Below, one piece after another: positions 25-33,479 of a DNA stretch of 39,593 bases. The DNA lies in NCBI GenBank assembly GCA_964613545.1, contig CAZTHH010000001.1, positions 1 through 39,593 on the forward strand, in the 5' to 3' direction. A program made the position numbers and the translations under genes. Origin of the DNA: an uncultured Candidatus Saccharibacteria bacterium (GTDB lineage: Bacteria > Patescibacteriota > Minisyncoccia > Phycocordibacterales > UBA9973). Each line of letters begins with the position of its first letter. Within the stretch, counting starts at the first letter, position 1. The notes under the pieces are model-generated. The model was not told where the DNA came from and searched no databases. It was given only the letters and a program-made list of their open reading frames with translations.

Positions 25-1521
25 ATGAAACAAACTCAAACAACAATAAATAAGGAGAACATACCAAACTATGTTACACATGTAACAGAAACACTCGAAA
101 ATGCTGGTTTTGAGGCTTTTATTGTGGGTGGTTGTGTACGAGATCTTATCTTAGGCAGAGAGCCGAAAGATTGGGATATTACGACAAATGCGACCCCAGA
201 AGCGATAATCCCTTTATTTGAAAAGACTATTTACGAGAATGCCTTTGGCACAGTAGGGGTTTGCGTACCAAAGGATGTTACACAAGAAACATTAGAATAT
301 TATATCGTAGAAGTAACCCCTTACCGAGAGGAGAGCAATTACACCGACAACAGGCATCCGGAGAGTATTTCTTTCTCAAAAGATATAAAGGACGACCTAA
401 AACGCCGTGATTTTACAATAAATGCTTTAGCCTACAGCGTTTCACAGGATTGTCTAATAGACAACTATAAAGGACAAGAAGATATAAAAGACAAAGTAAT
501 TAAAACAGTAGGGAACCCAGATGAGCGTTTCCAAGAGGATGCACTCCGCCTTTTGCGGGCAATTAGGTTTTCCACAGTTTTGGACTTTGCCATAGAAGGG
601 GAGACATTATTAGCAATTGCTCAAAATGCCCATCTTATAAAAAATATTTCACAAGAAAGAATCCGTGATGAATTCACAAAAATTATAGACAGCCCTCATA
701 GTGCACGAGGAATTGGCCTCCTACAAAAATTAGGGCTCTTAAAACATATTATTCCAGAACTAGAAGAGGGAATCGACTGCCACCAGGGTGGAGCACATAT
801 CTATGATGTATTCGAGCATCTCCTCGGCGCTCTCCAACATGCCACAGAAAAAAAACTGCCGACAGTGCTTCGCCTTGCAGCGCTCTTTCATGATATTGGT
901 AAACCTCGAACGAAACGAACCCCAAGCAATAAAGCAAAGCCAACTTTCTATGGACACGAAGTTGTGGGTGCACGCATGGCGGACAAAATCATGAATCGCC
1001 TAAAATACCCAAAAGATATTACCGAAAAAGTAGTGAAGCTCATTCGCTATCATATGTTCTTTTCTGATACAGAACTCATTACACTCTCTGCGGTACGCCG
1101 AATTATTGCAAATGTAGGAACAGAAAATATCTGGGATCTTATGACAATCCGCGAGTGCGACAGGGTAGGAATGAACAAAACAGAAGCCCCATACCGCCTC
1201 CGCAAATACCATGCCATGATAGAGGAAGCGCTCCGTGATCCAATTTCCGTAAAACAGCTTAAGGTAGATGGAAACTACCTCATGAACACACTAAACATAA
1301 AAGCCGGACCCCGCATGGGCTGGATACTAAATGCACTCCTCGAAGAAGTACTCGATGACCCTACAAAGAACACCCTGGACTATTTAAGTGGTAGAGTAGG
1401 GGAACTCGACCCCTTCTCCGATATCGACCTCCGCGCGCTCGGCGAACAAGGCAAAGAAAAGAAAGAAGAACTCGAAGGTGAAGAAGTAGACAAACTACGA
1501 AAAAAGCACGGTGTAAAATAA
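25..1521 (+). CDS. cca: CCA-adding tRNA nucleotidyltransferase (nucleotidyltransferase head + HD domain)
   Basis: 498-aa ORF. N-terminal GGCVRDLILGREPKDWDITT and RRDFTINA motifs typical of the poly(A) polymerase/CCA family. HD-type LFHDIGKP region. Hairpin terminator follows. Confidence 0.9.
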   Translation: MKQTQTTINKENIPNYVTHVTETLENAGFEAFIVGGCVRDLILGREPKDWDITTNATPEAIIPLFEKTIYENAFGTVGVCVPKDVTQETLEYYIVEVTPYREESNYTDNRHPESISFSKDIKDDLKRRDFTINALAYSVSQDCLIDNYKGQEDIKDKVIKTVGNPDERFQEDALRLLRAIRFSTVLDFAIEGETLLAIAQNAHLIKNISQERIRDEFTKIIDSPHSARGIGLLQKLGLLKHIIPELEEGIDCHQGGAHIYDVFEHLLGALQHATEKKLPTVLRLAALFHDIGKPRTKRTPSNKAKPTFYGHEVVGARMADKIMNRLKYPKDITEKVVKLIRYHMFFSDTELITLSAVRRIIANVGTENIWDLMTIRECDRVGMNKTEAPYRLRKYHAMIEEALRDPISVKQLKVDGNYLMNTLNIKAGPRMGWILNALLEEVLDDPTKNTLDYLSGRVGELDPFSDIDLRALGEQGKEKKEELEGEEVDKLRKKHGVK

Positions 1522-1551
1522 AAGCCAATCAATATGATTGGCTTTTATTTT
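1521..1551. terminator. Bidirectional intrinsic terminator between convergent cca and Cys-rich gene A
   Basis: AAAGCCAATC (1521-1530) / GATTGGCTTT (1536-1545), a 10-bp stem with 5-nt loop. A-run lies upstream and T-run downstream. Confidence 0.75.
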
Positions 1552-3335
1552 TAGACTACTTCTTGCTGGTAGCAGGATTCACAGTAGACAATGTCTCCAT
1601 CTTTAGGATTGAACCCTGTTCTGAACGTTTCGCAACAAGGAGCATCTCCGTGAGTATGCTTGGCAGTATTTGTAAACTGACCTGTCTCATCCGCAGAACC
1701 ACCACACATACAATTTCTTTCGTAGAGCTCCAGACCAAGACGGAAGTGGAGTCGCTCCATGGTGCGGCAAGAAGGGCAGAGTGTTGGAAGTGGCACACCG
1801 ATATTTTTATAAAAAGCTAATTCATCGGCAAGAATCCGAAATGCTTTTGTGCAGTTGTGATTACAATTTGTTTCGTGAGCGCACTCAATAATTTCTGAAG
1901 TGATTGAATCACTAACTTCTTCTATATTGTTTGGAATATTTTCTGAAGTCAGAGTCGGTACATAAGATTTAGTATCTTGATCACGCCAGCGGTAACCTTT
2001 TTCTATCGCTTGTTCTTTTGTAAGAGGGAAATATTCTTGCGCGAGAGTTTCATTGTATGCCCAAGGACTCATCTCTACTGGAAAATACTCTCCATATTTA
2101 TACTCACGACCAGCTTTATCAACATATGGCATTTCCTCCATATGCTTTTTTATTTTCTCTACCATTATTTTATATTCCTCCTTTGTATACTGTTTATTTA
2201 AAATGCAGTACTCATGCTTTCGTAAACCTACACAACCAAACAGTTCTTGGCATCCATTTGTACAATTTATTGTGTATTCAGTATCATGTACATTTTCTTG
2301 AGTTAGTAATGCAAATTTTATATTCTGCACACCAGTACCACAAGATGTAGCCTCATACACGAGCTCAGCACCATCACCCCAAATACTATAATCATAGGCA
2401 TCTTTTACTCCCGGAGTTTCCTGAAGATACTGGGAATATTTTATATTTTCACATTCACGAATTAAAAACGAATCGTGCACATTTTTAGAATTACCGACAT
2501 ATGAACCATCACAATCAAAGTTCTTTATCCCTTGATGATATTTATTTGGGAACTTTTTCCAGAAAGCACTCGTATCGCGTATGGCACGATCAAGGCCCTC
2601 CTTTGTATGGAGCATGTATTCTTTTACTTTTTTATTATATTCCTCTTTTGAAAGTTGCTCGTTGAAGAAACAGTAACTTTTATTTCGTAAGTTCACACAA
2701 CCAAAACAATTAAGGCATCCTTGGCAATCACGAGAAAACCACAAATCACTCGACTCTACACATTGAGAGCAAAAGTTTGCACGGTAGCAATTCGCAAGCC
2801 AAAAAGATTGGTAGCTCGATTCTGTTTTTGAAATGTGAGAACAGTCCACGCAATCCCGAGAAAAATTTACTCCATTAGAATACATAGAATCTTCCGGACT
2901 TGTCGCGTTGAATACGAGATAACAATTTTTCGGGTCAGTCGCATTATTTGAGTACTCGCTATCCACTCCGCGGATTACATTGTTTGCCTTGAACGGCACC
3001 TCGAGCATAAGTTCGTACAGCTGGGCGAGAAATGGGCGAGACCAATCTATCTCACGCCCATAATTCATCGGATCCCATTCGTCAGAAAGCCAGAAATCGC
3101 GCTCATACACCTTCACCGGAGACTCGTTTGAATACATAGAGAAAATTTCCTTCCCAGAATAATCACTCTTCCTCTTGTATAAACCTCTTTCGTTTCGAAA
3201 AGCCAGCCGTCTTTGCGCCCGGCACATCGGGCAGAAAGTCGGATGGGGGACATTCATGCGCTGATAAAAAGAAGCATCATCACCATAAATAATAAAGTTT
3301 TTGTCACAATTTTTGCAAATTTTAGTTTCTTCCAT
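1551..3335 (-). CDS. Cysteine-rich multi-zinc-ribbon protein, paralog A (function unknown)
   Basis: 594-aa ORF with 33 Cys. CxxC...CPxCR zinc-ribbon modules at both termini. Internally duplicated Cys-periodic core. Clear paralog of ORF 4213-5925. Confidence 0.85.
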   Translation of the reverse strand: MEETKICKNCDKNFIIYGDDASFYQRMNVPHPTFCPMCRAQRRLAFRNERGLYKRKSDYSGKEIFSMYSNESPVKVYERDFWLSDEWDPMNYGREIDWSRPFLAQLYELMLEVPFKANNVIRGVDSEYSNNATDPKNCYLVFNATSPEDSMYSNGVNFSRDCVDCSHISKTESSYQSFWLANCYRANFCSQCVESSDLWFSRDCQGCLNCFGCVNLRNKSYCFFNEQLSKEEYNKKVKEYMLHTKEGLDRAIRDTSAFWKKFPNKYHQGIKNFDCDGSYVGNSKNVHDSFLIRECENIKYSQYLQETPGVKDAYDYSIWGDGAELVYEATSCGTGVQNIKFALLTQENVHDTEYTINCTNGCQELFGCVGLRKHEYCILNKQYTKEEYKIMVEKIKKHMEEMPYVDKAGREYKYGEYFPVEMSPWAYNETLAQEYFPLTKEQAIEKGYRWRDQDTKSYVPTLTSENIPNNIEEVSDSITSEIIECAHETNCNHNCTKAFRILADELAFYKNIGVPLPTLCPSCRTMERLHFRLGLELYERNCMCGGSADETGQFTNTAKHTHGDAPCCETFRTGFNPKDGDIVYCESCYQQEVV

Positions 3336-3341
3336 AACTAT

Positions 3342-3369
3342 ATATTACAATACTAAAAATAAAAAACAA
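3342..3369 (-). promoter_or_regulatory. Candidate promoter of Cys-rich gene A (TTGTTT-16-TAATAT, -10 box 6 nt before ATG)
   Basis: On the minus strand TAATAT = 3342-3347 and TTGTTT = 3364-3369. The ATG at 3335 lies 6 nt downstream of the -10, implying a leaderless transcript. Confidence 0.45.
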
Positions 3370-3385
3370 GTATAATCTGTATAAA

Positions 3386-3418
3386 TTGTTGACAAATTTT
3401 CAACAACTTTGATATAGT
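3386..3418 (+). promoter_or_regulatory. Promoter of TrmB-like gene with overlapping palindrome (operator candidate)
   Basis: TTGACA 3389-3394, 18-nt spacer, TGaTATAGT 3410-3418, ATG 6 nt further. Inverted repeat TTGTTGA (3386-3392) / TCAACAA (3400-3406) overlaps the -35. Confidence 0.55.
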
Positions 3419-3424
3419 AAGGCT

Positions 3425-4186
3425 ATGTTAGAAAAGACGCTAAATGAGCTTGGGCTAGGAAATAAAGAGATAGCGGTATACAAGCTAATACTTGAGCATG
3501 GGAAAATTGCTCCAGCACTTCTTTCACGGCTCGCAAAAATAAATCGTACTACTATATATAGTGTAGCGAAGGAATTAAAAGAAAAAGGTTTAATCGTGGA
3601 GGACCTCGGAGGGAAGACGCTCTATTATTTGCCCGTACAAGAAAATGAATTAGAAAAGATTATAAAGAAGGAACAGGAAAATTTAAATAAAAAACAAAGT
3701 TCAATTAAAGACCTACAAGAATTTTTAAAAAATGCTCCTGGGTCTAAAACGTATTCTGTGCCAAAGATACGATTTGTAGAAGAAGCTGATATAAAAGAAT
3801 ACCTTCACACCGCTTCACCGAAATGGAATGAGAATATGCTGACGGCAGATACTACATGGTGGGGTTTTCAGGACCATACCTTTGTAGAAGAGTTTAAAGA
3901 TTGGATAGTTTGGTACTGGAAAATGGCGCCAAAAGAAATAGACCTCAAGCTGTTCAGTAATGATAAAGAAATTGAAAAACATATGGTAGAACAAAAACTT
4001 GAACGAAGAAATATTCGCTTCTGGAGCGGAGAAGAAGACTTCACTGCTACGCAGTGGGTAATCGGCTCATACATAGTGCTCATCGTTACAAACCAAAAGC
4101 CCTACTACCTTGTAGAAATTCACGATTCAGTCCTCGCTCATAATATGCGCACACTATTCAAACGCATGTGGAAAGACACAAACTAA
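3425..4186 (+). CDS. TrmB-family winged-helix transcriptional regulator
   Basis: 253-aa ORF. The N-terminus (LGLGNKEIAVYKLILEHGKIAPALLSRLAKINRTTIYSVAKELKEKGLIVE) has the TrmB-type wHTH pattern, followed by a coiled-coil linker and a C-terminal domain. Confidence 0.75.
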   Translation: MLEKTLNELGLGNKEIAVYKLILEHGKIAPALLSRLAKINRTTIYSVAKELKEKGLIVEDLGGKTLYYLPVQENELEKIIKKEQENLNKKQSSIKDLQEFLKNAPGSKTYSVPKIRFVEEADIKEYLHTASPKWNENMLTADTTWWGFQDHTFVEEFKDWIVWYWKMAPKEIDLKLFSNDKEIEKHMVEQKLERRNIRFWSGEEDFTATQWVIGSYIVLIVTNQKPYYLVEIHDSVLAHNMRTLFKRMWKDTN

Positions 4187-4210
4187 AAACCTCCATTCGG
4201 AGGTTTTTAG
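4186..4210. terminator. Bidirectional intrinsic terminator between TrmB-like gene and Cys-rich gene B
   Basis: AAAACCTCC (4186-4194) / GGAGGTTTT (4199-4207) with 4-nt loop. Flanked by an A-run and a T-run. Confidence 0.75.
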
Positions 4211-4212
4211 TT

Positions 4213-5925
4213 TTACACCATTTCCTGCTGATAGCATTTTTCGCAATAGATAACTTCGGGGCGGTCTGGTGAAAATGCGGTGGTTACAGAAGCATCGCAC
4301 TTTGCGCAATGACGTTCGTAGAACTTTGGAATATTTATTTTTGCAAAGCGTGCACTGTCTCTACATTTTGGGCACTGATTCGGAATAGGGAGATTGAGTC
4401 TTTGCAAAATGCTGTACTCGAGCTGAATTACTTTATACTTTTTAGGACAAGTCGTGCAGGAAATAATCTCGTCGAGTATTTTGTCTCCTGATTCTGTAAG
4501 TGTCTCAGGAAGATCATTTCCAGTAATAGTCGCTTCAATATTCGCCTCTGGCTCTTCATGCCAAAAATATCCTTCACTTTCAGCCTCTACTTTTGTTTTT
4601 GGGAAAAATTTCTGTGCATTGGATGTATTATAAGCAAACTTACTAAACTCAGGTGGAAAAAATTCTCCGTAATAATACTTTCTCCCCAGTGCATCCACAT
4701 AAGGATTCTTCTTCATGTCTTCCATAATTTCGGCACAAAGCTTTTCGTAAATTTCTTTATCATACACTTTATTTAAAATTGCATATTGTTTCCGCTTTAG
4801 ATTGGCACAACCAAAATTATTTTTGCCAGCGATTGCCCAAATAGAATATTCTGTATTCATTACATCGGGAAAACAATAGCAAGAAAACTTCACATTACTC
4901 ACATTATCTCCAATATTTGCTGATTCATATATAAGATTTGCATTGTTACCCCAACCAGAATAGTCCACGCAATCTCTCGCTGGTGCCACCGTAACGAATT
5001 GGCAATTTTTACAATCTTCAGTACCATTTGATATATACATGTTTTCAGAATTTTTCGCCTCGTATACATACTCACCAGTAGTATTTAAATTAAAAGTATT
5101 TCCAGAATATGCACGATAAGGAAACTGCTTCCAAAATTTTTCAGCTTCAACTTTAATTGTTTTAATTCCAGACCTCGTATCAAGTTTCATTTCTTTTATC
5201 TTTGCCCCATAGTCTTCCTTGGAATATTTCACGTTAAAAATATGGTAAGAAGCGCCACGCAAATTTACGCAACCCACACAATTTGTACAACTGTAACAAT
5301 TACGAGAAAACCAAACATCAGTAGAAGTATCACATTCCTCAGAATACATCACTCTGTAGGATTTATTTTGTCCTATGGATTCATAACAGAGCTCTGAATC
5401 CTGCATGCGTAAACAATCAGTCGTGTCTTTCACACCATTGAGCAATGCTGAATAGCACACATTTTCACAATAATCTGCCCAGCCAGCGAGTGTACAGTTC
5501 TTGCTATACGCAATCGCATTACAATACTCACAATCTTTCAAAGTAAGATAAGTAGTCTCAAGAGCACAATATGGAGTCTTGTCACTAAGCTCTTTTACTT
5601 GTTCTAAAAAGGGGCGAGACGAATCATATTCCATTCCATATTCAGTTCCATCCCATTTATCACCCCACCAGCAAGGCTGACAATATACAGTAATATCTTG
5701 AGTTGCTGGATACATCGAGAGTGTCCGCTTATCACATAAATCACAGTTACGCCAAAACAACGAAAAACCATTCACTTTAGAAATTCTCCGAATCAATCTG
5801 CATTCAGGGCACCATGTAGGATGGGGAACATTAATTTTCTGATAGTAGAGCTCATCTCGCTCGTCTATCATAAATTCCTTTTTACAATTTTGACAGTTAG
5901 TATTCATACTGCTATTGTTCCACAT
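4213..5925 (-). CDS. Cysteine-rich multi-zinc-ribbon protein, paralog B (function unknown)
   Basis: 570-aa ORF with 36 Cys and the same architecture as ORF 1551-3335. Starts 3 nt after the xth stop codon. Confidence 0.85.
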   Translation of the reverse strand: MWNNSSMNTNCQNCKKEFMIDERDELYYQKINVPHPTWCPECRLIRRISKVNGFSLFWRNCDLCDKRTLSMYPATQDITVYCQPCWWGDKWDGTEYGMEYDSSRPFLEQVKELSDKTPYCALETTYLTLKDCEYCNAIAYSKNCTLAGWADYCENVCYSALLNGVKDTTDCLRMQDSELCYESIGQNKSYRVMYSEECDTSTDVWFSRNCYSCTNCVGCVNLRGASYHIFNVKYSKEDYGAKIKEMKLDTRSGIKTIKVEAEKFWKQFPYRAYSGNTFNLNTTGEYVYEAKNSENMYISNGTEDCKNCQFVTVAPARDCVDYSGWGNNANLIYESANIGDNVSNVKFSCYCFPDVMNTEYSIWAIAGKNNFGCANLKRKQYAILNKVYDKEIYEKLCAEIMEDMKKNPYVDALGRKYYYGEFFPPEFSKFAYNTSNAQKFFPKTKVEAESEGYFWHEEPEANIEATITGNDLPETLTESGDKILDEIISCTTCPKKYKVIQLEYSILQRLNLPIPNQCPKCRDSARFAKINIPKFYERHCAKCDASVTTAFSPDRPEVIYCEKCYQQEMV

Positions 5926-5928
5926 CTA

Positions 5929-6723
5929 TTACTTTAACTCAAGCACAATAGGGCAGTGGTCAGAGCCGAGGTAGTCGGTGAGCATTTCAGACTTTTTTAT
6001 GAGCTGAAGAAGGGGAGCTGAAACAAAGAAGTAATCAATACGCCAGCCGACGTTGCGGTCACGAGAAGAAGTCTTTTGATCCCAGTAGGTATACATGTCT
6101 TTTGTATTTGGGTGAAGTGTACGAAATGTATCTACATATCCGTGATCAATTACTTTTGTAATCCATGCACGCTCGATAGGGAGGAATCCGGTGTTCTCTT
6201 CATTTGCTTTTGGGCGAGCCAGGTCCACCGCTTCATGCGCAGTATTTACATCACCAGTAAAAATTATTTCATACCCAGCCTTTTTCTTTTTATCGATAAA
6301 TTTTAAAAATGCATCATAAAACTTGAGCTTGTATTCGAGGCGGTGCGGACCTTGCCCACCGTTTGGATAGTAGCCGTTCAAAAGAATAGTCTTTTGTTTC
6401 ACACTTCCTAATCCTTTTTCAAAATAAAGCACAATGAGTCGCCCTTCTTGATCGAGCTCTTGTATTCCTAAGCCATACTCTACTTTATCCGGCTTCACTT
6501 TTGTATACACAGCGACACCACTATATCCCTTTCTTCCTAGAGAGTGAGAGAAGTATGAATGATAGTTCTTTATGTTTCGCACTGCATCAGGAAGTTGCTC
6601 AGCTTCACACTTTGTCTCTTGTAAACAGAGAATATCCATCTTGTATTTTGCAAACAATCCATCAAAATTGCCTTGTTTCACCGTCGCCCGTAATCCATTT
6701 GTATTCCAAGAAATGAGTTTCAT
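5929..6723 (-). CDS. xth: Exodeoxyribonuclease III (AP endonuclease, EEP fold)
   Basis: Start set at MKLISWNTNGLRA (internal Met 37 of the 300-aa track ORF). Motifs ILCLQETK, GDVNTAH and C-terminal SDHCPIVLEL. TGtTACTAT -10 box (6730-6738, minus strand) lies 6 nt upstream of this ATG. Confidence 0.9.
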   Translation of the reverse strand: MKLISWNTNGLRATVKQGNFDGLFAKYKMDILCLQETKCEAEQLPDAVRNIKNYHSYFSHSLGRKGYSGVAVYTKVKPDKVEYGLGIQELDQEGRLIVLYFEKGLGSVKQKTILLNGYYPNGGQGPHRLEYKLKFYDAFLKFIDKKKKAGYEIIFTGDVNTAHEAVDLARPKANEENTGFLPIERAWITKVIDHGYVDTFRTLHPNTKDMYTYWDQKTSSRDRNVGWRIDYFFVSAPLLQLIKKSEMLTDYLGSDHCPIVLELK

Positions 6724-6863
6724 ATATGTATAGTAACACAAACTAATAAACTCCATAAAATACAAACCTTTCTCCGGTACGGATTTTTTGAAGCTTAAAA
6801 AATCCTGAAGTTTTCGGCTCGACAGCCTCAAAACCCCTACGAAAAGTTATATTTTAGTTTCGT

Positions 6864-7787
6864 TTATTTGCCTTTACCGTGGAATTTTTTGTGCACATCG
6901 CGGAGTTGGGAATCGGTGACGTGAGTATAGATCTGCGTCGTTGCAATGTTGGCATGCCCAAGCATCATTTGCACAGAGCGAATATCGGCACCATTACCGA
7001 GGAGGTCTGTCGCAAAGCAGTGGCGGATGACGTGGGGCGTAACCTTTTTTGATATACCGGCTTTCATTGCGCATTGTTTTACGATACGCTCGATGGAACG
7101 GCGGGTGAGGGAGCGAATTTCTTTTGCTGTTTCCAATTCTTTACCAACTTGCACAAAGAGTGCATCAGACATATCTTTCCGCAGTGCCATATAACTCTTT
7201 AGTGCATTCTTTGCTTCATCAGAAAGAAAGACGACACGCACCTTTCCGCCTTTTCCGCGAATAGAGAATTGGTCAGCTGTAAGATCAAGGTCATTCGTCA
7301 GAGAGCACAATTCCGAGACACGTAATCCTGTAGAAAACAGTAGCTCAAGGATGGCTTTGTCGCGCAAAGACTTTATGTCACTTCCACCAGAGGCAGTCAG
7401 CAACCGGCCAAGTTCATTTGGGGTAATAAGGTCAAGCGAACGCTCACCAACTTTTGCAAGATCAATCTCATCAGCAGTCATTGATTTAATCTTTCGGCGA
7501 GTGAGGAATTTCAGGAATACACGGAGCGCAATCATATAATAATTCTGTGTTTTTTTTGAAATAGTTTTACCTGTCTGGCGATTATTGCCAGTTGATTGGC
7601 GGTTCAGCCACAAGCGGAATTCTCGAACTTTTTCAATAGTGATATCTTCTGGCTCCTCGAGTTTAGCAAAAGCAAAAAAACGACTAAGATATTGATCGTA
7701 ATTTTCAACGGTTCGCAAAGCATTACCTTTTTCAATTTCAATATGCTCAAGGAACTCTCTTTTTAATTGGTCTAGTCGTGTCGCCAT
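6864..7787 (-). CDS. xerC: Tyrosine recombinase, XerC/XerD family
   Basis: N-terminal SAM-like core-binding domain. The C-terminus has HVIRHCFATDLL...LGHANIATTQIYTHV with the catalytic R..HxxR..Y pattern. Start taken at ATG 7787; an alternative GTG lies at 7796. Confidence 0.8.
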   Translation of the reverse strand: MATRLDQLKREFLEHIEIEKGNALRTVENYDQYLSRFFAFAKLEEPEDITIEKVREFRLWLNRQSTGNNRQTGKTISKKTQNYYMIALRVFLKFLTRRKIKSMTADEIDLAKVGERSLDLITPNELGRLLTASGGSDIKSLRDKAILELLFSTGLRVSELCSLTNDLDLTADQFSIRGKGGKVRVVFLSDEAKNALKSYMALRKDMSDALFVQVGKELETAKEIRSLTRRSIERIVKQCAMKAGISKKVTPHVIRHCFATDLLGNGADIRSVQMMLGHANIATTQIYTHVTDSQLRDVHKKFHGKGK

Positions 7788-7858
7788 ATGTCGCACAATA
7801 ATTGTATCATATATTGACTTCCCACGTCTTTTGCTTGATACTAAACAAAAAAATCAAT

Positions 7859-8280: not shown

Positions 8281-8309
8281 TTGCATAATTTTGCAATCCG
8301 TGCTACTAT
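8281..8309 (+). promoter_or_regulatory. rpsO promoter (TTGCAT-17-TGcTACTAT), -10 box 7 nt before ATG
   Basis: TTGCAT 8281-8286, extended -10 TGcTACTAT 8301-8309, ATG at 8317. Confidence 0.55.
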
Positions 8310-8316
8310 AAGCCCT

Positions 8317-8577
8317 ATGTTAACAACGAAGAAAAAGGCAACAATCATCAAAAAGAACCAGGTCCATGATAAGGATACAGGCTCTCCAGAAGTTCAGATC
8401 GCTATGATTACTGAGCGTATTGATGAACTTGCAACACATTTAAAGAAACACAAGAAAGATAATCACTCACGACGTGGACTTATCAAGATGGTGGCAGATC
8501 GCCGAAAGCACCTGAAACACCTAGAAAAGACAGACAAGACTCGCCATGAGAAAGTAGCTAAAAAATTAAAAGCATAA
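8317..8577 (+). CDS. rpsO: 30S ribosomal protein S15
   Basis: 86 aa from MLTTKKK. GSPEVQIAMITERIDELATHLKKHKKDNHSRRGL is the conserved S15 core. Confidence 0.9.
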   Translation: MLTTKKKATIIKKNQVHDKDTGSPEVQIAMITERIDELATHLKKHKKDNHSRRGLIKMVADRRKHLKHLEKTDKTRHEKVAKKLKA

Positions 8578-8631: not shown

Positions 8632-9135
8632 ATGATAATCAAACACAAAGAACAAAGAGTCGGGGTATTTATTGATACTTCAAACCTCTACCATAGCGCA
8701 AAGAACCTCTACAAACGTAAAGTGAACTTCGGAGCAGTATTAAAAGACGCAGTTGCGGGGCGTAAGCTCGTCCGCGCTACTGCATATGTCATCACTAGTG
8801 AAGGCGGTGAAGAAAAAAACTTTTTTGAAGCACTTACAAAGCTCGGCATTGAAACAAAAACAAAAGACCTCCAAGTATTTTCTGGTGGGGCCAAGAAAGG
8901 TGACTGGGATGTAGGTATCGCCGTCGATGCAATGAAAATGGCACCACGCCTTGATGCCGTCATCCTCGTCGCAGGGGACGGAGATTTTATCCCGCTCGTA
9001 GAATATTTACAGAATACTCATGGGACACAAGTTGAAGTAGTCTCATTTGGTAAATCTGCCTCAATGAAATTAAAAGAGGTTGCTGATGATTTCCTCGACC
9101 TTTCGGTAAGTCCACAAAAATATTTAATTCGATAA
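8632..9135 (+). CDS. NYN-domain (LabA/DUF88-like, PIN-related) protein
   Basis: 167 aa. VGVFIDTSNLYHSAK ... DWDVGIAVDAM ... ILVAGDGDFIPLVEYL matches the acidic-residue pattern of the NYN/LabA family. Confidence 0.75.
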   Translation: MIIKHKEQRVGVFIDTSNLYHSAKNLYKRKVNFGAVLKDAVAGRKLVRATAYVITSEGGEEKNFFEALTKLGIETKTKDLQVFSGGAKKGDWDVGIAVDAMKMAPRLDAVILVAGDGDFIPLVEYLQNTHGTQVEVVSFGKSASMKLKEVADDFLDLSVSPQKYLIR

Positions 9136-9136
9136 T

Positions 9137-9967
9137 ATGAAACTCTCTTTGATACACAATACGTCAGATATGCATGTGGGAGGATTCCTTCCGGAAGCAG
9201 GCTACAACGAAGACCCAAAAGAGCTTTTCCACTTAGTTACATTACATAAAAAACACTTTGCAAAAAATTTAGAAGAATACAGAGAGGAAATTGTACAAAG
9301 TGGAGAATATAAAGAAATTCAAAAAGGTGTATACTTGCCTACGCACGCAAGTATTAATGATCATATTGTATTTGATACAACAAAAGGAATTATTGTAATT
9401 GAAAAGAACGTAACAATAATGCCATTTACCTACCTCGCAGGACCACTTCGTATAGATGAAGGAGCAACCATCAATCCGCACTCAAACATCTCCGGCTCAT
9501 ACATTGGAAAGTTTTGTAAAATAGGTGGGGAAGTTTCAAATTCTGTATTCGAAGCATATAGCAACAAAGGCCACTATGGATATGTAGGAGATAGCTATGT
9601 GGGAAGCTGGGTGAATCTCGGCGGAGGCACAGCCACATCAAATCTTAAAAATACATATGGCACAATAAAGATGGATGGAGTTGAGACAGGCGAGCAATTC
9701 ATCGGATCTATCATTGCAGATCATGTAAAAACGGCGCTCAATACAGCAATCTATACGGGAAAAATTATTGGTATGGGTGCACATATTTATGGAACAGTGA
9801 CGACAGATGTGCCACCATGTGTAAATTATTATGGAAAGGATAATATGATAGCAATTCCATTTGAAGTTATTGAAAAGACCGCAACACGAATGATGGCACG
9901 CAGGGGAGTAGTATTTAATGAAGGAGATAAAAAAACATTACAATTAATTTATAATTCAAATGAGTAA
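9137..9967 (+). CDS. Left-handed beta-helix (hexapeptide-repeat) protein, GlmU C-terminal-domain-like
   Basis: 276 aa. Hexapeptide-like run IGKFCKIGGEVSNSVFEAYSNKGHYGYVGDSYVGSWVNLGGGTATSNLKNTYG. No nucleotidyltransferase GxGxR motif seen. Starts 1 nt after the NYN stop codon. Confidence 0.55.
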   Translation: MKLSLIHNTSDMHVGGFLPEAGYNEDPKELFHLVTLHKKHFAKNLEEYREEIVQSGEYKEIQKGVYLPTHASINDHIVFDTTKGIIVIEKNVTIMPFTYLAGPLRIDEGATINPHSNISGSYIGKFCKIGGEVSNSVFEAYSNKGHYGYVGDSYVGSWVNLGGGTATSNLKNTYGTIKMDGVETGEQFIGSIIADHVKTALNTAIYTGKIIGMGAHIYGTVTTDVPPCVNYYGKDNMIAIPFEVIEKTATRMMARRGVVFNEGDKKTLQLIYNSNE

Positions 9968-19490: not shown

Positions 19491-19850
19491 ATGAATACTG
19501 ATACATATAAAAATAAATTATTGGAAGAAAAGGCAGTGCTTGAAGGAGAACTCGCAAACGTCGCAATCAAACATACTGATAGTGGTGTCTGGGTAGCTGT
19601 GCCAGAAGCAGAAACATATGCCGAAGCAGACGAAAACGACAAAGCTGATCGCGCAGAAGAGTACGAAGCACGTACGGCGCTTGTAAACACACTCACCGAA
19701 AGATTGGGAGATATTCTCATCTCGCTTGCAAATATTGAAGCGGGGAGTTTTGGTACCTGTTATGGATGCGGAATGCAAATAGAAGAAGACAGACTCGAGG
19801 CAAACCCAGCAGCACAAACCTGCAAAACATGCATGAATAAAGTACTCTAA
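19491..19850 (+). CDS. DksA/TraR-family C4 zinc-finger protein
   Basis: 119 aa. An acidic coiled-coil is followed by CYGCGMQIEEDRLEANPAAQTCKTC. Confidence 0.8.
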   Translation: MNTDTYKNKLLEEKAVLEGELANVAIKHTDSGVWVAVPEAETYAEADENDKADRAEEYEARTALVNTLTERLGDILISLANIEAGSFGTCYGCGMQIEEDRLEANPAAQTCKTCMNKVL

Positions 19851-19947: not shown

Positions 19948-21519
19948 ATGTCATTTTCACGAGTGTACGCGGCACAACCATATATACTAAAGGGAAAAAT
20001 TGTCACTATTGAAGTGGATATCACCAAAGGCACACTTCATGCTTTTACTATGGTAGGCCTGCCGGACAAAGCAGTCGATGAAGCAAAAGATAGGATGAGT
20101 TCAGCACTAAAAAATTCTGGATATAATTCTCCCAAAAATCAAAATCAGAAAATCGTTATCTCACTATCTCCGGCAGACTTAAAAAAGGAGGGCGCGTATT
20201 TTGATTTAGGAATTGCAATTTCATATTTACTCTCTGCCGAAGAATTAGACTTCAATCCCGAGAAAAAATTATTTCTTGGTGAGCTCTCACTCAATGGGGA
20301 ACTCCGCCCAATCAAAGGAGTATTGCCACTCACTCAGATTGCACAAAAAGAAGGATATACAGAAATTTTTGTTCCAACAGAAAATGCAAAAGAAGCGGCA
20401 CTCGTCGAAGGAATTACCATATATGGGGCACGTACACTAAAAGAAGTTATCGATCATCTCTATACAATCAAATACAATAAAAAAGGAGAAGCATTGGAGC
20501 CAGAGCGCCCTAAAATACTTCCGCAAACAAAAACAGAAATTATAAAGGCAGAGAAAATACACAACATAGATTTCTGCGACATCCGTGGGCAAGAAGGTGC
20601 AAAACGCGGTCTTGAAATTGCCGCAGCGGGCGGACACAACATCGCAATGAGCGGACCGCCGGGAACAGGAAAGACAATGCTCGCCAGAGTATTCTCGCAT
20701 ATTCTACCGGACCTACAGAATGATGATATTCTTGAAATCACCGGCATTCATTCTATTGTCGGACTTTTGGAAAGTGAATTAATTACGGAAGCCCCATTCC
20801 GTGCACCGCACCATACTGCATCATATGTTTCCATTATCGGCGGAGGATCAAATGTAAAACCAGGGGAGGTAACACTCGCACACAAAGGAGTACTATTCCT
20901 CGATGAATTTCCAGAATTTGAAAAGAAGGTTTTGGAGAGTTTACGCCAACCACTCGAAGACAATATTGTTTCTGTCTCTCGTGCAAAAGGCACCGCAATT
21001 TTCCCGTCCAACTTTATCCTTGTCGCAGCGATGAATCCATGCCCGTGCGGACACAAAGGTAATAAGCAAAAGCAGTGCATCTGTAAACCAAGTGATTTAG
21101 ATAAATACAAAAGAAAACTTTCAGGACCAATAATGGATAGAATAGATATCTGGGTGACGGTCGGCGCAGTGGACTTTGACAAGCTTTCCACCGAGCAATC
21201 GTACGGAGAAAAAACTAATACAATAAAAGAAAGAGTCTTAAAAGCAAGAGAAACTCAAGAAAAAAGATTTAAAAGAGCCACAAGAAAAATTAAAACAAAT
21301 AGTGAAATGAATGTAAAAGAATTAAATACATTCGCCCCGCTTTCCGAAGAAGTAAAACAAATCCTAAACCAAAGCGCCGAACGCCTTCAGCTTTCCGCCC
21401 GTGCATACCACCGCACAATAAAACTCGCCCGCACCATCGCGGATCTTGAAGGTAGTGAAAATATTTCCGCTTCGCACGTCCTCGAAGCACTGCAATACAG
21501 GCCAAAGGTAAATAATTAG
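19948..21519 (+). CDS. yifB: Mg-chelatase-like AAA+ ATPase, YifB/ComM family
   Basis: 523 aa. Lon-protease-like N-domain, Walker A (GPPGTGKT), Walker B (VLFLDEFPEF) and a CPCG zinc motif. Confidence 0.85.
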   Translation: MSFSRVYAAQPYILKGKIVTIEVDITKGTLHAFTMVGLPDKAVDEAKDRMSSALKNSGYNSPKNQNQKIVISLSPADLKKEGAYFDLGIAISYLLSAEELDFNPEKKLFLGELSLNGELRPIKGVLPLTQIAQKEGYTEIFVPTENAKEAALVEGITIYGARTLKEVIDHLYTIKYNKKGEALEPERPKILPQTKTEIIKAEKIHNIDFCDIRGQEGAKRGLEIAAAGGHNIAMSGPPGTGKTMLARVFSHILPDLQNDDILEITGIHSIVGLLESELITEAPFRAPHHTASYVSIIGGGSNVKPGEVTLAHKGVLFLDEFPEFEKKVLESLRQPLEDNIVSVSRAKGTAIFPSNFILVAAMNPCPCGHKGNKQKQCICKPSDLDKYKRKLSGPIMDRIDIWVTVGAVDFDKLSTEQSYGEKTNTIKERVLKARETQEKRFKRATRKIKTNSEMNVKELNTFAPLSEEVKQILNQSAERLQLSARAYHRTIKLARTIADLEGSENISASHVLEALQYRPKVNN

Positions 21520-23410: not shown

Positions 23411-23439
23411 TAGACACAATAATGTATAAATTGTATAAT
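23411..23439 (+). promoter_or_regulatory. Promoter of the 872-aa membrane protein gene (TAGACA-17-TATAAT)
   Basis: TAGACA 23411-23416 and TATAAT 23434-23439, with the ATG at 23446 six nt downstream. It sits inside an 11-bp-arm palindrome (23422-23447). Confidence 0.55.
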
Positions 23440-23445
23440 TTATAC

Positions 23446-26064
23446 ATGGAAAAACGCACACAGAAAAAAACTTTTACTCCACTATCAGAAAAAGCCCTGA
23501 AAACAGCCACCATAAGACAACTCCTTGATAAGGGATACGACATTACAAGTCCTGAAGTAATTGCGTCCAATAAACGCGATATCGTAAAATTAGAAGCTAG
23601 CATAAAAGCAAAGGAAGAAAAAATAAAGTCTCGAATTCCTCCAAAAAGTTCAGTAGGGGCACCAGCACCGAGTGACGCTAGAGAGCCTGTAGGTATAACA
23701 GCAGCTGATCCAATTCACAACGAAGAACCAGTAGCGCTAGAAACAACCACTGAAGCAAAAGAAGAAGATACAACACCTGAAGTAATCCCTGAAATAGCCT
23801 CATCACCAATCAAGCAAGTAGAATTACTAGAAAAAGACAAGGAGCCAGTAGCACCACTTGAACAAAAAGATATCCCAGTAATTCATCTTGAACAACTCGA
23901 GAGTAACTTTATCGCAAAGCGTGAAATGTATGTAAAAGAACTCAATAAATACAATACGGAACGTAAAACATGGAGACAGTCAGCGTATAGATTGGGGCAG
24001 TGGCTTGGAATTACTTCCGAAGAAGAACATTTAGCAGAAAAATATCCAAATCTTATTGCATTAAAAAATACATACGATGCCGCTCGAATGACATACAGCG
24101 AGACAGCAATTATTGAAAAAACAGCGGCAATAAAAGCAGAGAATCCAAATATTACAAAAGAAGCACTTACGCAAACGCTCAACGAATACAGAGAAGGGGT
24201 AATAAATAAACGTATTCATCATGAAGAGTACCCAGAACTCACCAATGCGCAAGCAGAAAAACTTCCTCCAAACCGAAAACAAATCTACGACAAACTAGCC
24301 GGTGCATACGGATGGTACGCAAAGGGAACTGGTTTTGGGGCAAAGGTTAAACGTGCAGCTATTTCTACTGCCGTTTTCGGAACTGTTGGTGTATCATTTG
24401 GCGCTGCCGCAGCGATGGGGACCGGAGCATATCTTGGATATCGTTTTGCTAAAGGTGTCATCTCAGCCACTACTTCTGGCATGGTAGTAAAAGTTATTAA
24501 GAACTATCAAGAAAAAAGTATGAAGAAATTCACTGATATGCAAGCCAGCGCAAAAGAAAAAGCACTCTCAGATTTTAATACTGGCATAATCAATCTTGTA
24601 CAATACGAAAATAAATTAAAAGAAATAGAAAAAAGTATTGAAAAGAAAAATCGTAATCAACTCCTTGCTCGAGCAGGGGCAGGACTGCTCGTCGGCTTTG
24701 GTACTTCATATGGAATACAAGCAGCAGGGGGGCAAACACTTTACGAAGATGCATACCGATCAATAAAAGGAGGTGCACCAGAGGGAGGAAGCACCGTACA
24801 TCATCCACAAATAGGGGGCACTCCAATAGAAAAAAAGCCTGGAATGATATCTTCACAAGAAAAGCCAACCCACATTTCTGATTATGCAAAAGTACGTGCA
24901 ACCGAAGGAATCACTCATGCCCTCAAAGCACAACTTGAAAATAACACAGAACTCGCTCAAAAACTTGGATACCCTCTATCAGGAACAACAATGGAGAAAG
25001 CTCATTTCTTAATGAATATGGCAAAATCCCACGGATACATAGATGACACAGGAGAAATACGGGTGGGGGAAGTTGGAGCTGCCTATGTATTAAATGCAGA
25101 TGGAAGTATTACAGAATATGCCCCAGATGGTACAACTTCAGTAGAAACACACGTTGAGGGTGGTTCAAACAATGATCTTTCTGGAGGAAATGAAAGCTAT
25201 GAATACCGTGAACCAATGACAACACAAGGTGACATCACAGGAAAAGGGAATCTAATGAATGAATCCCAAAATAACACCACACAACAAAATTTTAATTCCA
25301 AGGAACCATTGATAGATTTATCTTCAAGAAAAATATCACCCATACCATCAACTCTAAATAACGAACCACTCAAATTACATACAATTGATTCTACGACGAT
25401 ACCAAAAGCTAATGAAAACGGAGGGGGTGGCTATTTCGACGGCTATGATTTCAAAACTCCTGAATACACAGAATCACAACCAGACTACAGCATCGGAAAC
25501 AATAATGATGGGTTACATTTTACAAAACAAGATGGTGGGGCTTTTGTATTACGTAACCAACAAAATCCTCTCAACCAAAAACTATTTAATGTAAGGCAAC
25601 GAATGCAAGGATATAATCCAAGAGGGAAATACTATAATCCTAATGCGGTAAAATGGTCAAAAACAGCACCAGGTAGTGAACCGACAACACACGCAACACC
25701 GACCCCAACACCAAAAGTAATTCCAAGTATCGAAAACATTGAGGCGCACAAACACAATGTAATTGATAAGATATTTGGACATAAAAAATTATTTGGAAAG
25801 CATGTACACGGTGAAGACTCTGAGTCATGGAAAAAAATGAAAAACATGACACTGGATAAAATAATGAATGGAAACAAAAAAGACTTTCCACGTTTTGAAC
25901 GAGATGAGGTAAATGATATTAAATTCCTTATGCGAAAAATAGGAATGGCAACAACTGATCCAAACGGAAAGCCGATAACAGTAGATACCCTGACCAAAAT
26001 CCTCGCAAAAATGGAAGTAGAGCAAAAATTAAACGTCGCAACATTATTAGCAAAAGAACATTAA
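23446..26064 (+). CDS. Large hypothetical membrane protein (872 aa from Met 23446; the track ORF starts at 23422)
   Basis: Long ORF with a charged/coiled N-terminal third. Gly/Ala-rich hydrophobic segments AAISTAVFGTVGVSFGAAAAMGTGAYLGY and LLARAGAGLLVGFGTSYGIQAAGG. Roughly 440-aa C-terminal region with no recognisable motif. Confidence 0.7.
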   Translation: MEKRTQKKTFTPLSEKALKTATIRQLLDKGYDITSPEVIASNKRDIVKLEASIKAKEEKIKSRIPPKSSVGAPAPSDAREPVGITAADPIHNEEPVALETTTEAKEEDTTPEVIPEIASSPIKQVELLEKDKEPVAPLEQKDIPVIHLEQLESNFIAKREMYVKELNKYNTERKTWRQSAYRLGQWLGITSEEEHLAEKYPNLIALKNTYDAARMTYSETAIIEKTAAIKAENPNITKEALTQTLNEYREGVINKRIHHEEYPELTNAQAEKLPPNRKQIYDKLAGAYGWYAKGTGFGAKVKRAAISTAVFGTVGVSFGAAAAMGTGAYLGYRFAKGVISATTSGMVVKVIKNYQEKSMKKFTDMQASAKEKALSDFNTGIINLVQYENKLKEIEKSIEKKNRNQLLARAGAGLLVGFGTSYGIQAAGGQTLYEDAYRSIKGGAPEGGSTVHHPQIGGTPIEKKPGMISSQEKPTHISDYAKVRATEGITHALKAQLENNTELAQKLGYPLSGTTMEKAHFLMNMAKSHGYIDDTGEIRVGEVGAAYVLNADGSITEYAPDGTTSVETHVEGGSNNDLSGGNESYEYREPMTTQGDITGKGNLMNESQNNTTQQNFNSKEPLIDLSSRKISPIPSTLNNEPLKLHTIDSTTIPKANENGGGGYFDGYDFKTPEYTESQPDYSIGNNNDGLHFTKQDGGAFVLRNQQNPLNQKLFNVRQRMQGYNPRGKYYNPNAVKWSKTAPGSEPTTHATPTPTPKVIPSIENIEAHKHNVIDKIFGHKKLFGKHVHGEDSESWKKMKNMTLDKIMNGNKKDFPRFERDEVNDIKFLMRKIGMATTDPNGKPITVDTLTKILAKMEVEQKLNVATLLAKEH

Positions 26065-33000: not shown

Positions 33001-33479
33001 GTACAACAAAAAGAACAGTTACCGGATTAGATAATAAAAATAAAACATATAAATTTAGAATTGCTGCGGTTAATGCCGTTGGATCAAGTGCAACAAGCCA
33101 ACCAGTAACACCGAAAGTTACTTATAACCCACAATTTGATGTCACCGCAGCCGAAGACACTGATTTTGTAAAACAATTAGCTGGAATGTGTATGGTAAAC
33201 ATTACTATCACAAACAAGAATTCAGCAAACGCATCAACATACAATTGGACACTATCGACAGAATTTGGAAATCAATATGTATCAGTAAATCCAGTCAAAG
33301 GAACTGGTGCGACAAACCAACCACCAAATCCAGCATTTAGTATTGATGCACATAAATCATACGGTAAAACAAAAATCAATCTAACACGCGACAACATTAA
33401 TGGAACAAAAGATACTGCAGTAAAAGAAATTACCATTACCAAAATGAACACAAATCAAAGTGGAAATACGTGTCAGTAA
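30057..33479 (+). CDS. Giant secreted protein (1140 aa) with one fibronectin type III domain
   Basis: Signal peptide ...FISPIVPVSYSYAEIK. Gly-rich hydrophobic segment GIGAAAGTVIPGVGNAVGALVGLAIDVGL. FN3-like block (about nt 32826-33116): DLSWSAPTNTGTSPITDYTIEY...YKFRIAAVNAVGSS. Starts 1 nt after the previous stop codon. Confidence 0.8.
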   Translation: MNLFTYMQKKTLAGILVFAIFISPIVPVSYSYAEIKDPNYIYTGGMLGDSASGTTADDILNDQTGGLASNADPLDTDTTGGNTNKIALSVFGCGNGPKRFIKSIQDLSSLYEAQKVLKSEGLAGGLSPLTNVLGTTAKTAVEIKALAKDIKDAKLIAGASTLAAQQTADKETQKSLVLINSKIDKQLAAAEEQKVWEQCLNGIAYKVTKHQIANMTQKTINWVNSGFAGDPLFIKDQKTFFKNIETKTMRSILGPISAYNNTTVYPYGQDLARSMINGFKTTFEERAKSTLQQSLPSGSSPDDFTNDFTQGGWSAWESFTLNPQNNPLGFQMITTQHIADEAAKDVQAQKDELTQKDFIGQKKCVEWEADATKEDKNHPFTLNSTKLNDPDAQDKCIRYETITPGGVTEALINAQITSPIRQLEIANTINESLDSVFTALISQLSTKGFSSLSSFSTQNNEITADYTPKRYYNSYGYLIQVSKTHGGWYNKGGKFDITRDLDDIYTNDATGKKTLVKKGIITTQKDYLEAATAAMKGLGPILPAIGKLDYCIPGPNPGWEQRTDEKIAELVDYMQNQSFNGTKKSMLPKWVSGNTFGTFTGIGAAAGTVIPGVGNAVGALVGLAIDVGLSVYDKVQKNKNENNKVELEAQYAKAEANFYANQNAQIANFSSQFQSYSDYVHKKYDTIVEPKLPDGSNNPQYLPMAQAGLDIVKNLDRYDANVKQAYQDYDEVIGQTKTNIRKLEAIKKRVDEIVKGARKRWAKEITDKLSAPGQKIDWSCFDTSLGQGGDGSNDLADGANGTRTQEGTALGADFDTPQQDTQAPVGKCTTEVTATGISVNGDAPFKYSWSLKTGQDVVTLSAGEYKVDNNQLFSAKVDAYKDSGLAKLTLTVEDGNGDKATKTKDITIAHKDVDARGVTCPKPPEAPGTPYDITANIVSDTTADLSWSAPTNTGTSPITDYTIEYAPYASFVWTKFAHTASSTTKRTVTGLDNKNKTYKFRIAAVNAVGSSATSQPVTPKVTYNPQFDVTAAEDTDFVKQLAGMCMVNITITNKNSANASTYNWTLSTEFGNQYVSVNPVKGTGATNQPPNPAFSIDAHKSYGKTKINLTRDNINGTKDTAVKEITITKMNTNQSGNTCQ

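Follow-up and report, generated by a model that had tools for sequence, protein, structure and literature searches.

The window analysed here, a stretch of 39,593 nucleotides from an uncultured Candidatus Saccharibacteria bacterium, encodes two large cysteine-rich proteins on its minus strand, which we call A (positions 1551–3335; 594 amino acids, 33 cysteines) and B (4213–5925; 570 amino acids, 36 cysteines), each belonging to an orthogroup named after it. Between them, on the plus strand, lies the gene for a TrmB-like winged-helix regulator. A sequence-only reading of the window had presented the two proteins as sharing one architecture; the coordinates, strand, lengths and cysteine counts of the open reading frames (ORFs) are as given there, and the common architecture is borne out by BLASTP, which aligns A with B from end to end (37% identity, E = 2e-132). 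A and B are anciently diverged members of a large cytoplasmic family, named F below, of zinc-ribbon β-helix proteins. As judged from the sequence, a signal peptide is impossible on either protein because the N-terminus is itself a zinc ribbon. The alignment of orthologues indicates that B may instead start at M7 (position 5907), which would give a protein of 564 amino acids. We used 42 members of the family for library scans and structure prediction, 197 full-length members for conservation, clustering and internal repeats, and a sample of 87 loci (±10 kb) for gene neighbourhoods.

Five modules make up each protein: a double ribbon at the N-terminus, two β-helix halves, a domain containing the motif YGEFFP and a second double ribbon at the C-terminus. 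All module coordinates refer to the minus strand, and the four ribbons are numbered R1 to R4. The N-terminal pair of B (residues 7–95; 5641–5907) has its cysteines at C11, C14, C39 and C42 and at C61, C64, C82 and C85 (zf_Tbcl, E = 0.0077; hhalign), and the C-terminal pair (residues 487–570; 4216–4467) at C490, C493, C518 and C521 and at C540, C543, C561 and C564, with zf_Tbcl_2 and TIGR04272 matching below their cutoffs. In A, residues 4–90 (3066–3326) hold a zf_Tbcl ribbon (C7, C10, C35 and C38; 23.4 bits) and a second ribbon, intact in B and degenerate in A as had been noted, in which S, S, E and F occupy the ligand columns; residues 481–594 (1554–1895) hold a zf_Tbcl-like ribbon and an expanded zf_Tbcl_2-like one (alignment, hhalign). 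The suggestion that the double-ribbon module recurs at the C-terminus is upheld by hhalign, which matches the N-terminal to the C-terminal pair with a probability of 99.8% and an E-value of 1.5e-28 over 82 columns, against an E-value of 0.094 for an unrelated pair. The four cysteines of R1 are retained in 192 of the 197 relatives and those of R2 in 137; overall, the twelve ligands of R1, R3 and R4 are kept in 93–97% and those of R2 in 70%, so that R2 is lost in about 30%. In B, exactly 17 residues separate the two knuckles of R2 and of R4 (CxxC-x17-CxxC), and the C-terminus (...VYCEKCYQQE) is extremely conserved in the family alignment. The last ribbon of the A orthogroup carries an insertion of about 22 residues of the form C-x-C...H-x-H...C (NCMCGG...KHTHGD..CC; residues ∼540–594, window 1554–1720), which is absent from B and most other paralogues and might be an extra metal site. 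Residues 407–486 of B (4468–4707) form an acidic domain, delimited by its invariant columns and conservation profile, containing the family's best-conserved motif (PYVD..GR.Y.YGEFFP.E.S.FAYN), which sits in a mixed helical domain in the predicted structure. The proteins are acidic overall (pI 5.3; the median of the 197 members is 6.2), but with basic zf_Tbcl modules (+5 in A and +7 in B).

The first β-helix half of B (residues 121–246; 5188–5565) was delimited from predicted strands, periodicity and hhalign and ends in the cap CxxCxxCxxCVNLR and an SKEDY helix; the second (residues 271–406; 4708–5115), predicted with lower confidence and also supported by hhalign, ends in the cap FGCANLK and a DKEIY helix. 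A duplicated core had been proposed, and the profiles of the two halves indeed match each other (probability 99.9%, E = 6.8e-35, 117 columns). BLASTP also pairs the N-terminus of A and the C-terminus of B (E = 9e-9), as well as the second core half of A and the first of B (E = 2e-4), and these cross-alignments again indicate internal repeats. The AlphaFold2 model of B, calculated from the 42-sequence alignment and numbered from M7, has a mean pLDDT of 85.4 and a pTM of 0.86. It places two small ribbons at residues 1–80, followed by helices, then four-residue strands every six residues from 128 to 187, the first cap and a helix at 230–259; a second solenoid, at lower confidence, spans residues ∼270–375 and is followed by an FGC-x-NL-K cap and a helix at 384–400, after which come the mixed helical domain and the C-terminal pair of ribbons. 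Set out six residues to a row, the first half shows the pattern [S/C]-x-x-C-x-[Y/F]. The solenoid-like core that had been surmised is thus predicted for B as a β-solenoid, but not with the repeat of about 12 residues read from its cysteines: the periodicity of Cys and Ser is based on 3 and 6, with 12, 18 and 24 as harmonics, and together with the strands every six residues this argues for a hexapeptide-type solenoid rather than a 12-mer, which we reject. Similarly, the cap FGC-x-x-L-[RK] assigned to each half is found in the second half of B, but the first-half cap reads VGC. Among the 197 relatives, Ser, Val, Leu or Thr can stand in place of most core cysteines; the cap cysteines C213, C216, C219 and C373 (570-residue numbering) are the exceptions. 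We therefore regard the interchangeable core cysteines as packing residues of the solenoid and not as obligatory ligands, and a general metal-binding role for the core cysteines was discarded.

A Foldseek search of the PDB with the full model gave LpxD, γ-carbonic anhydrase, GlmU and PglD as the best matches (E = 0.014–0.2, probability ≤0.35, TM ≤0.2), and the best match in BFVD was a hexapeptide-repeat protein (E = 0.006); nothing in either database fell below an E-value of 0.001. Small phage 'zinc-ribbon domain' proteins were matched locally with a probability of 0.99, which agrees with the ribbons expected at the termini, as do the library matches described below. A separate model of the C-terminal 185 residues of B (pLDDT 90.9) had no significant match in the PDB (best E = 1.9). 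These matches raise the question of whether F could be a left-handed β-helix enzyme of the hexapeptide acyltransferase or γ-carbonic anhydrase type, for which the nature of the best, non-significant hits, including the viral hexapeptide proteins, and the strand period of six residues would speak. We consider this highly improbable: the Pfam Hexapep family matches none of the 42 members, the structural matches stay at TM ≤0.2 and E ≥0.006, and among the invariant columns there is neither a His nor another catalytic signature.

Library scans picked out the terminal modules and little else. The zf_Tbcl and zf_Tbcl_2 models both describe treble-clef zinc ribbons, and zf_Tbcl is a domain of about 48 residues with two CxxC knuckles. 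Against cutoffs of 24 bits for zf_Tbcl (PF13451), 27 bits for zf_Tbcl_2 (PF23477) and 36 bits for TIGR04272, A scored 23.4 bits and B 16.6 bits with zf_Tbcl, and B scored 20.9 bits with zf_Tbcl_2 and 19 bits with TIGR04272; the Pfam and NCBIfam scans of A, B and the 42 members gave only sub-threshold ribbon matches. Among the 42 members, zf_Tbcl matched 21 at E < 1 (best 5.9e-05) and zf_Tbcl_2 matched 26 (best 2.7e-07), and nothing besides ribbons recurred; precomputed PF13451 matches are present on some homologues. Hexapep (PF00132) was not found in A, B or any of the 42 members at E ≤ 1, while the same tool does find it in an unrelated neighbouring gene (9137–9967). PADLOC had no match for A or B, PHROGs gave only weak matches to families without a function (E = 1.6e-4 to 0.27), sequence and profile searches of the PDB with A and B returned no usable match, and literature searches found no description of the family. 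The earlier statement that no function was known for this architecture therefore holds across Pfam, NCBIfam, PADLOC, PHROGs and the PDB, in which no characterised family was matched. Since the library, PDB and Foldseek searches gave no significant match for them, about 400 of the 570 residues lie outside any described family or solved fold arrangement. By exclusion, no known kind of protein family accommodates F beyond its terminal ribbons, and to these ribbons, too, no function has been assigned.

The family is large. Database searches retrieved 2625 relatives of B and at least 7987 of A, all unnamed or 'hypothetical', from metagenome-assembled genomes of Nomurabacteria, Paceibacterota, Staskawiczbacteria and similar groups. 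Searched with a profile, 1.84 billion cluster representatives yielded 4928 matches, 2080 of them below 1e-30, and the best 150 were nearly all full length. At least 588 loci were confirmed in GTDB species genomes, across many Paceibacteria lineages, and a search seeded from a divergent match extended the family to Gracilibacteria and Peregrinibacteria. F is thus nearly confined to Patescibacteria and has thousands of members. Orthogroups are 60–80% identical across genera. A viral or phage origin was rejected, as a scan of the IMG/VR viral contigs showed no relatives. F also occurs on contigs that do not resemble the candidate phyla radiation (CPR), with Ser/Thr kinases, two-component systems and IMPDH, and there it often has a GNAT acetyltransferase fused to its N-terminus. 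Such fusions make up eight clusters (P0350, P0391–P0396 and P0398; for example at L087 8001–10196, L091 and L092), and one member is fused to an inositol-monophosphatase-family (IMPase/SuhB) domain (P0405; L089 3687–6185). In the GNAT-fused P0350 most of the ribbon cysteines are gone and the Arg-rich helices are kept.

The cysteine content invites the idea that F buffers or chaperones zinc, or serves as a redox-sensitive cysteine-rich sink. There are 33–36 cysteines per protein, small archaeal (Methanosarcina mazei) proteins carrying a domain of the CxxC-x17-CxxC type have been found experimentally to bind zinc (PMC12704099), CutA1 genes occur in eight loci, and genes for Fur and a ZIP transporter lie near F in one (L002). 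Yet only 12–16 of the cysteines are in ribbon sites, enough for three or four zinc ions per ∼580 residues, those of the core exchange freely with Ser, Val and Leu, R2 is lost in 30% of members, and P0350 has lost most of its ligands but kept the rest of the protein. A role in zinc buffering or as a redox-sensitive sink thus has very little chance of being correct.

F genes tend to occur in groups. Of the 87 loci, 36 have one copy, 22 have two and 29 have three or more (at least two in 51), with co-directional arrays of seven to nine genes in six of them (L042, L070, L065, L050, L054 and L084) and a maximum of nine in 20 kb. Clustering of the 197 full-length members produced dozens of orthogroups, and only five members share a group with a copy from the same locus. 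The arrays are therefore made of old, individually conserved paralogues, and recent tandem duplication is rejected as their source. Column conservation divides the protein in two: the ribbons, caps and YGEFFP domain are common to all paralogues, and the β-helix bodies (residues 121–210 and 241–375 of B) are conserved only within orthogroups. This split is the pattern expected for a common docking function combined with recognition surfaces specific to each paralogue. Arrays of distinct old paralogues would also suit a hetero-oligomer, and F could be imagined as a bactofilin-like structural protein whose filaments or scaffold would arise from end-to-end stacking of the β-helix halves and joint assembly of several paralogues. 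The predicted β-helix core with its duplicated half fits this idea, MreB/FtsA-like genes are occasional neighbours and bactofilin is among the weak Foldseek matches (rank 17, E = 0.72). We nevertheless find polymer formation very unlikely, as the similarity to bactofilin is not significant, the MreB neighbours are sporadic, and the helix caps and flanking domains at the ends of the β-helix would hinder head-to-tail stacking.

Neighbouring genes were identified in the 87 loci by all-against-all clustering of adjacent ORFs. The commonest are P-loop ATPases related to TraD, VirD4 and HerA, found in 26 of the 87 loci (45 genes, 43 of them co-directional with F; within 300 bp in 16 loci), for which chance adjacency was estimated at about 2%; the association is spread across many F orthogroups. 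They match Pfam DUF87, TrwB_AAD_bind, T4SS-DNA_transf and TraG-D_C and the NCBIfam TraD and CD1115 VirD4-like models, and with their relatives they fall into three types. Type 1 is a soluble protein of ∼490 amino acids with a conserved acidic tail ending in EP[LM]I. Type 2 has 660–870 amino acids, a true zf_Tbcl_2 ribbon (48.7 bits; CxxC-x17-CxxC) and a KEVPEDVLRKVLE tail. Type 3 is a TraD/VirD4-like protein of ∼460 amino acids with a hydrophobic N-terminus and without a Walker A motif or Pfam match. The three types lie beside F arrays at L084 2774–6501 and 13892–15352, L042 836–4263, L067 4900–14288 and elsewhere, often accompanied by CutA1 and a Sigma70_r4+HARE-HTH protein. Less frequent recurring neighbours of F are CutA1, DnaJ/DnaK, an M17 aminopeptidase and the Sigma70_r4+HARE-HTH protein. 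A survey of 2,918 Patescibacteria genomes counted 5,713 VirD4-like type IV coupling proteins (T4CPs), of which only 148 are near virB4, and suggested exaptation (PMC12102498); the orphan VirD4-like genes of that survey are those that we find beside F.

We tentatively propose, as a possibility that falls well short of an even chance, that F is a family of cytoplasmic adaptor or recognition proteins. The common modules, that is the Arg-rich ribbon helices and the YGEFFP domain, would bind a common partner, either nucleic acid or the soluble TraD/VirD4-like coupling ATPases that are the commonest neighbours, or both, and each paralogue would have a target of its own, set by the variable faces of its β-helix. 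The retention of the Arg-rich helices in P0350, where the cysteine ligands are lost, and the presence of basic ribbon modules in an otherwise acidic protein are consistent with this. A bolder version, which we rate as doubtful, is that F and the trio of orphan TraD/VirD4-like proteins form an unrecognised Patescibacteria-wide machine, in which up to about ten paralogous β-helix adaptors would each bring different cargoes, nucleic acid or protein, to an exapted coupling motor; if true, it would explain the role of the thousands of 'orphan T4CPs' in these episymbionts.

The same arrays, lying next to coupling-protein-like ATPases that include the membrane-anchored type 3 relative, could alternatively mean that F proteins are themselves the cargo: the T4CP-like ATPases would recognise the conserved terminal modules as signals, and export would follow, possibly into the host cell. 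Known type IV secretion system (T4SS) effector families cluster beside virD4 and share conserved C-terminal recognition domains, and the C-terminus of F is extremely conserved. Effectors usually evolve fast, in contrast to the 60–80% identity of F orthogroups across genera and the position of B in a housekeeping operon. Secretion would further require the unfolding of four stable zinc ribbons, no immunity-like partner genes were seen, and most such T4CP genes are not near virB4 (PMC12102498). Export of F as an effector is therefore unlikely in our estimation.

Several observations weigh against the adaptor proposal. The neighbour frequencies are biased, because the loci are phylogenetically non-independent and were chosen by similarity to B. 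No ATPase is found within 10 kb in 61 of the 87 loci, and there is none in the window itself. A pI of 5.3 is unusual for general nucleic-acid binders, and gene order is the sole pointer to the interactions that we infer. Finally, the neighbours of the B orthogroup itself point to translation: rplS is directly downstream in 15 of 39 cases and a PseudoU_synth_2 gene directly upstream in 12 of 39. In the whole sample PseudoU_synth_2 is found upstream in 19 of the 87 loci, at a median of 5 bp from the F gene, and rplS downstream in 18, at a median of 54 bp. B is therefore normally found in the gene order rluD-(A)-B-rplS, and its position in the window is a local rearrangement. Here B follows an exonuclease III-type gene, xth (5929–6831, minus strand; Exo_endo_phos, 1.6e-27), which in turn follows a XerC/D-type tyrosine recombinase gene, xerC (6864–7796, minus strand; Phage_integrase, 1.9e-42). 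The reported spacing of 3 nt between the xth stop codon and B is correct, and would become 21 nt if B starts at M7. The listed xth ORF has a TTG start and an N-terminal extension of ∼37 residues, with the Pfam domain beginning at residue 40; its true start is probably the ATG of MKLISWNTNG (∼6720), ∼140 bp after xerC, which would leave room for a separate promoter.

The usual neighbours of B raise the possibility that F proteins are ribosome or RNA biogenesis factors, with Arg-rich zinc ribbons that bind rRNA or tRNA and paralogues that act on different targets. The close spacing of B orthologues to the pseudouridine synthase gene and rplS is seen in many genera, and A adjoins a gene for a CCA-adding enzyme (25–1521, plus strand; PolyA_pol, HD and tRNA_NucTran2_2), convergent with it, an arrangement that is also kept in L002. 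One GNAT-fused member lies directly behind der/engA, after mnmA, a MiaB-like gene and rnc, and the recurrent GNAT fusions and the single IMPase/SuhB-family fusion can be counted in the same direction. On the other hand, translation genes predominate in the tiny CPR genomes, where neighbours of this kind are to be expected often; the other GNAT-fusion loci lack conserved neighbours; the library scans of A, B and the 42 members found no known RNA-binding or modification domain; and a set of up to 9–10 paralogues per genome is hard to fit to a single step of ribosome assembly. A function in RNA biogenesis is thus conceivable, with the odds clearly against it.

The regulator gene between A and B (3425–4186, plus strand) encodes 253 amino acids, of which residues 6–68 match Pfam TrmB (PF01978; 8.4e-10, 38.8 bits against a cutoff of 25.6), so that its identification as TrmB-like is sound. 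Past the helix–turn–helix (HTH) the only Pfam matches are sub-threshold ones at chance level, with none beyond residue ∼124, and the NCBIfam TrmB-type equivalogs score 17–22 bits against cutoffs of 500–650. Its orthologues, 83% identical in L090 and 55% in L002, are both divergent from the A orthologue across ∼90 bp, and a metagenome search with the single protein found only one close relative. By HMM, 7 of 90 loci have TrmB-like neighbours, which are invariably encoded on the strand opposite to the F genes, often within 100 bp, with two to four copies per locus; they have ∼250 amino acids, are only ∼20% identical to one another and are interleaved with F genes in a few lineages. Conservation of such a gene beside homologues, on which the earlier reading depended, is therefore borne out in part: it is rare, but the layout F(+) TrmB(−) F(+) recurs in the distant lineage L088 and the divergent arrangement with A is kept in the orthologous loci.

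In the divergent region between A and the regulator gene there is a perfect palindrome, TGTTGACAAATTTTCAACA (TGTTGA-N7-TCAACA; 3387–3405), which is a candidate operator. It is the only exact match in the window, the rest of which contains only chance-level sites with two mismatches, and both L090 and L002 retain its half-sites. The best promoter-like site of the region, TTGACA-18-TATAGT (3389–3418, plus strand; 11/12, TG-extended), precedes the regulator gene, and the palindrome overlaps this site at the −35 box and spacer. A hairpin with a 15 bp stem (4180–4213), seen in the sequence between the convergent regulator gene and B, is a probable bidirectional terminator. The regulator would repress its own promoter by binding the palindrome; A would probably be transcribed from the promoter region that it shares with this autoregulated repressor, and probably be repressed by it, and B would be expressed separately, behind xth. 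Of the idea that the pair is under TrmB-like control, the part concerning A thus gains support from the shared promoter region and its conserved palindrome, but nothing links the regulator to B. The bracketing of the regulator by A and B is true of the window, but B is convergent and separated by the hairpin, and as its orthologues normally lie between the pseudouridine synthase gene and rplS the bracketing is a lineage-specific arrangement. Other TrmB-like paralogues have palindromes of their own at the same position, just upstream of their starts (L088 7420–7439 and 2370–2394, L002 3253–3274 and L015 2720–2736; for example TTGTCTATAA/TTATAGACAA in L088), with the related half-sites TTGTCTA and TGTCGA, which points to several autoregulators whose operators have diverged. 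In L002 (1–17749) there are three F genes together with five genes that encode TrmB domains, including one methyltransferase fusion; the Fur-family regulator and ZIP metal transporter lie at one end.

Elsewhere in the window, three very large ORFs (23422–26064, 880 amino acids; 30057–33479, 1140 amino acids; 33498–37544, 1348 amino acids), two without a Pfam match and one with fn3 only, probably encode surface proteins. A stand-alone gene for an NYN-domain protein, a predicted RNase (8632–9135), lies downstream of an rpsO-like ORF (8281–8577), and a DksA/TraR-type C4 zinc-finger protein (19491–19850) is encoded just before a ComM/Mg-chelatase-like gene (19948–21519). Rfam and tRNA scans of the window found no RNA gene.

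Patescibacteria genomes are ∼0.6–1 Mb in size and some spend 15–20 kb, about 2%, on arrays of F proteins of 570–600 amino acids. This cost, together with the identity of orthogroups across genera, argues for a strongly selected and so far unnamed function. The most telling features emerged from comparison between genomes and could not be read from the window alone: the expansion into arrays of old paralogues across Patescibacteria, to which F is largely restricted, the recurring link to orphan TraD/VirD4-like ATPases and the rluD-B-rplS operon. F is also, in this sample, what most often lies beside the orphan VirD4-like ATPases, and the literature has raised their role in Patescibacteria as a question. 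Its definition provides CPR cell biology with partners that can be tested, a candidate operator and, for recombinant work, a target that has four zinc sites; even if F were merely a structural zinc-ribbon protein, the core of ∼400 residues would merit a new domain family entry.

Among known systems, the partners of type IV coupling proteins, such as the relaxosome adaptor TraM, which binds the C-terminal tail of TraD, and the effectors recognised by VirD4, resemble F in that F genes adjoin TraD/VirD4-like ATPases, that one ATPase type has an acidic tail and that F combines common modules with a variable part. F, however, is not homologous to TraM, to relaxases or to the signal domains known from effectors, and the ATPases beside it are soluble orphans away from virB4 (PMC12102498), for which gene order alone suggests the interaction. 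The regulator shares with the TrmB family its winged helix and a palindrome over its own promoter, but has no recognisable sugar-binding C-terminal domain and scores far below the equivalog cutoffs. Left-handed β-helix proteins (LpxD, GlmU, PglD and γ-carbonic anhydrase) share with F the short strands every six residues and the Ser/Cys and aromatic residues in register; their hexapeptide signature, [LIV]-[GAED]-x2-[STAV]-x, contrasts with [SC]-x-x-C-x-[YF] in F, which has no Hexapep match, Foldseek matches at E ≥0.006 and TM ≤0.2, and no recognisable catalytic residues. With zf_Tbcl and zf_Tbcl_2, F shares the CxxC...CxxC layout, found in all four of its terminal ribbons; members of those families are small domains, either free-standing or attached to other proteins, whereas in F two pairs of ribbons flank the ∼400 unmatched residues.

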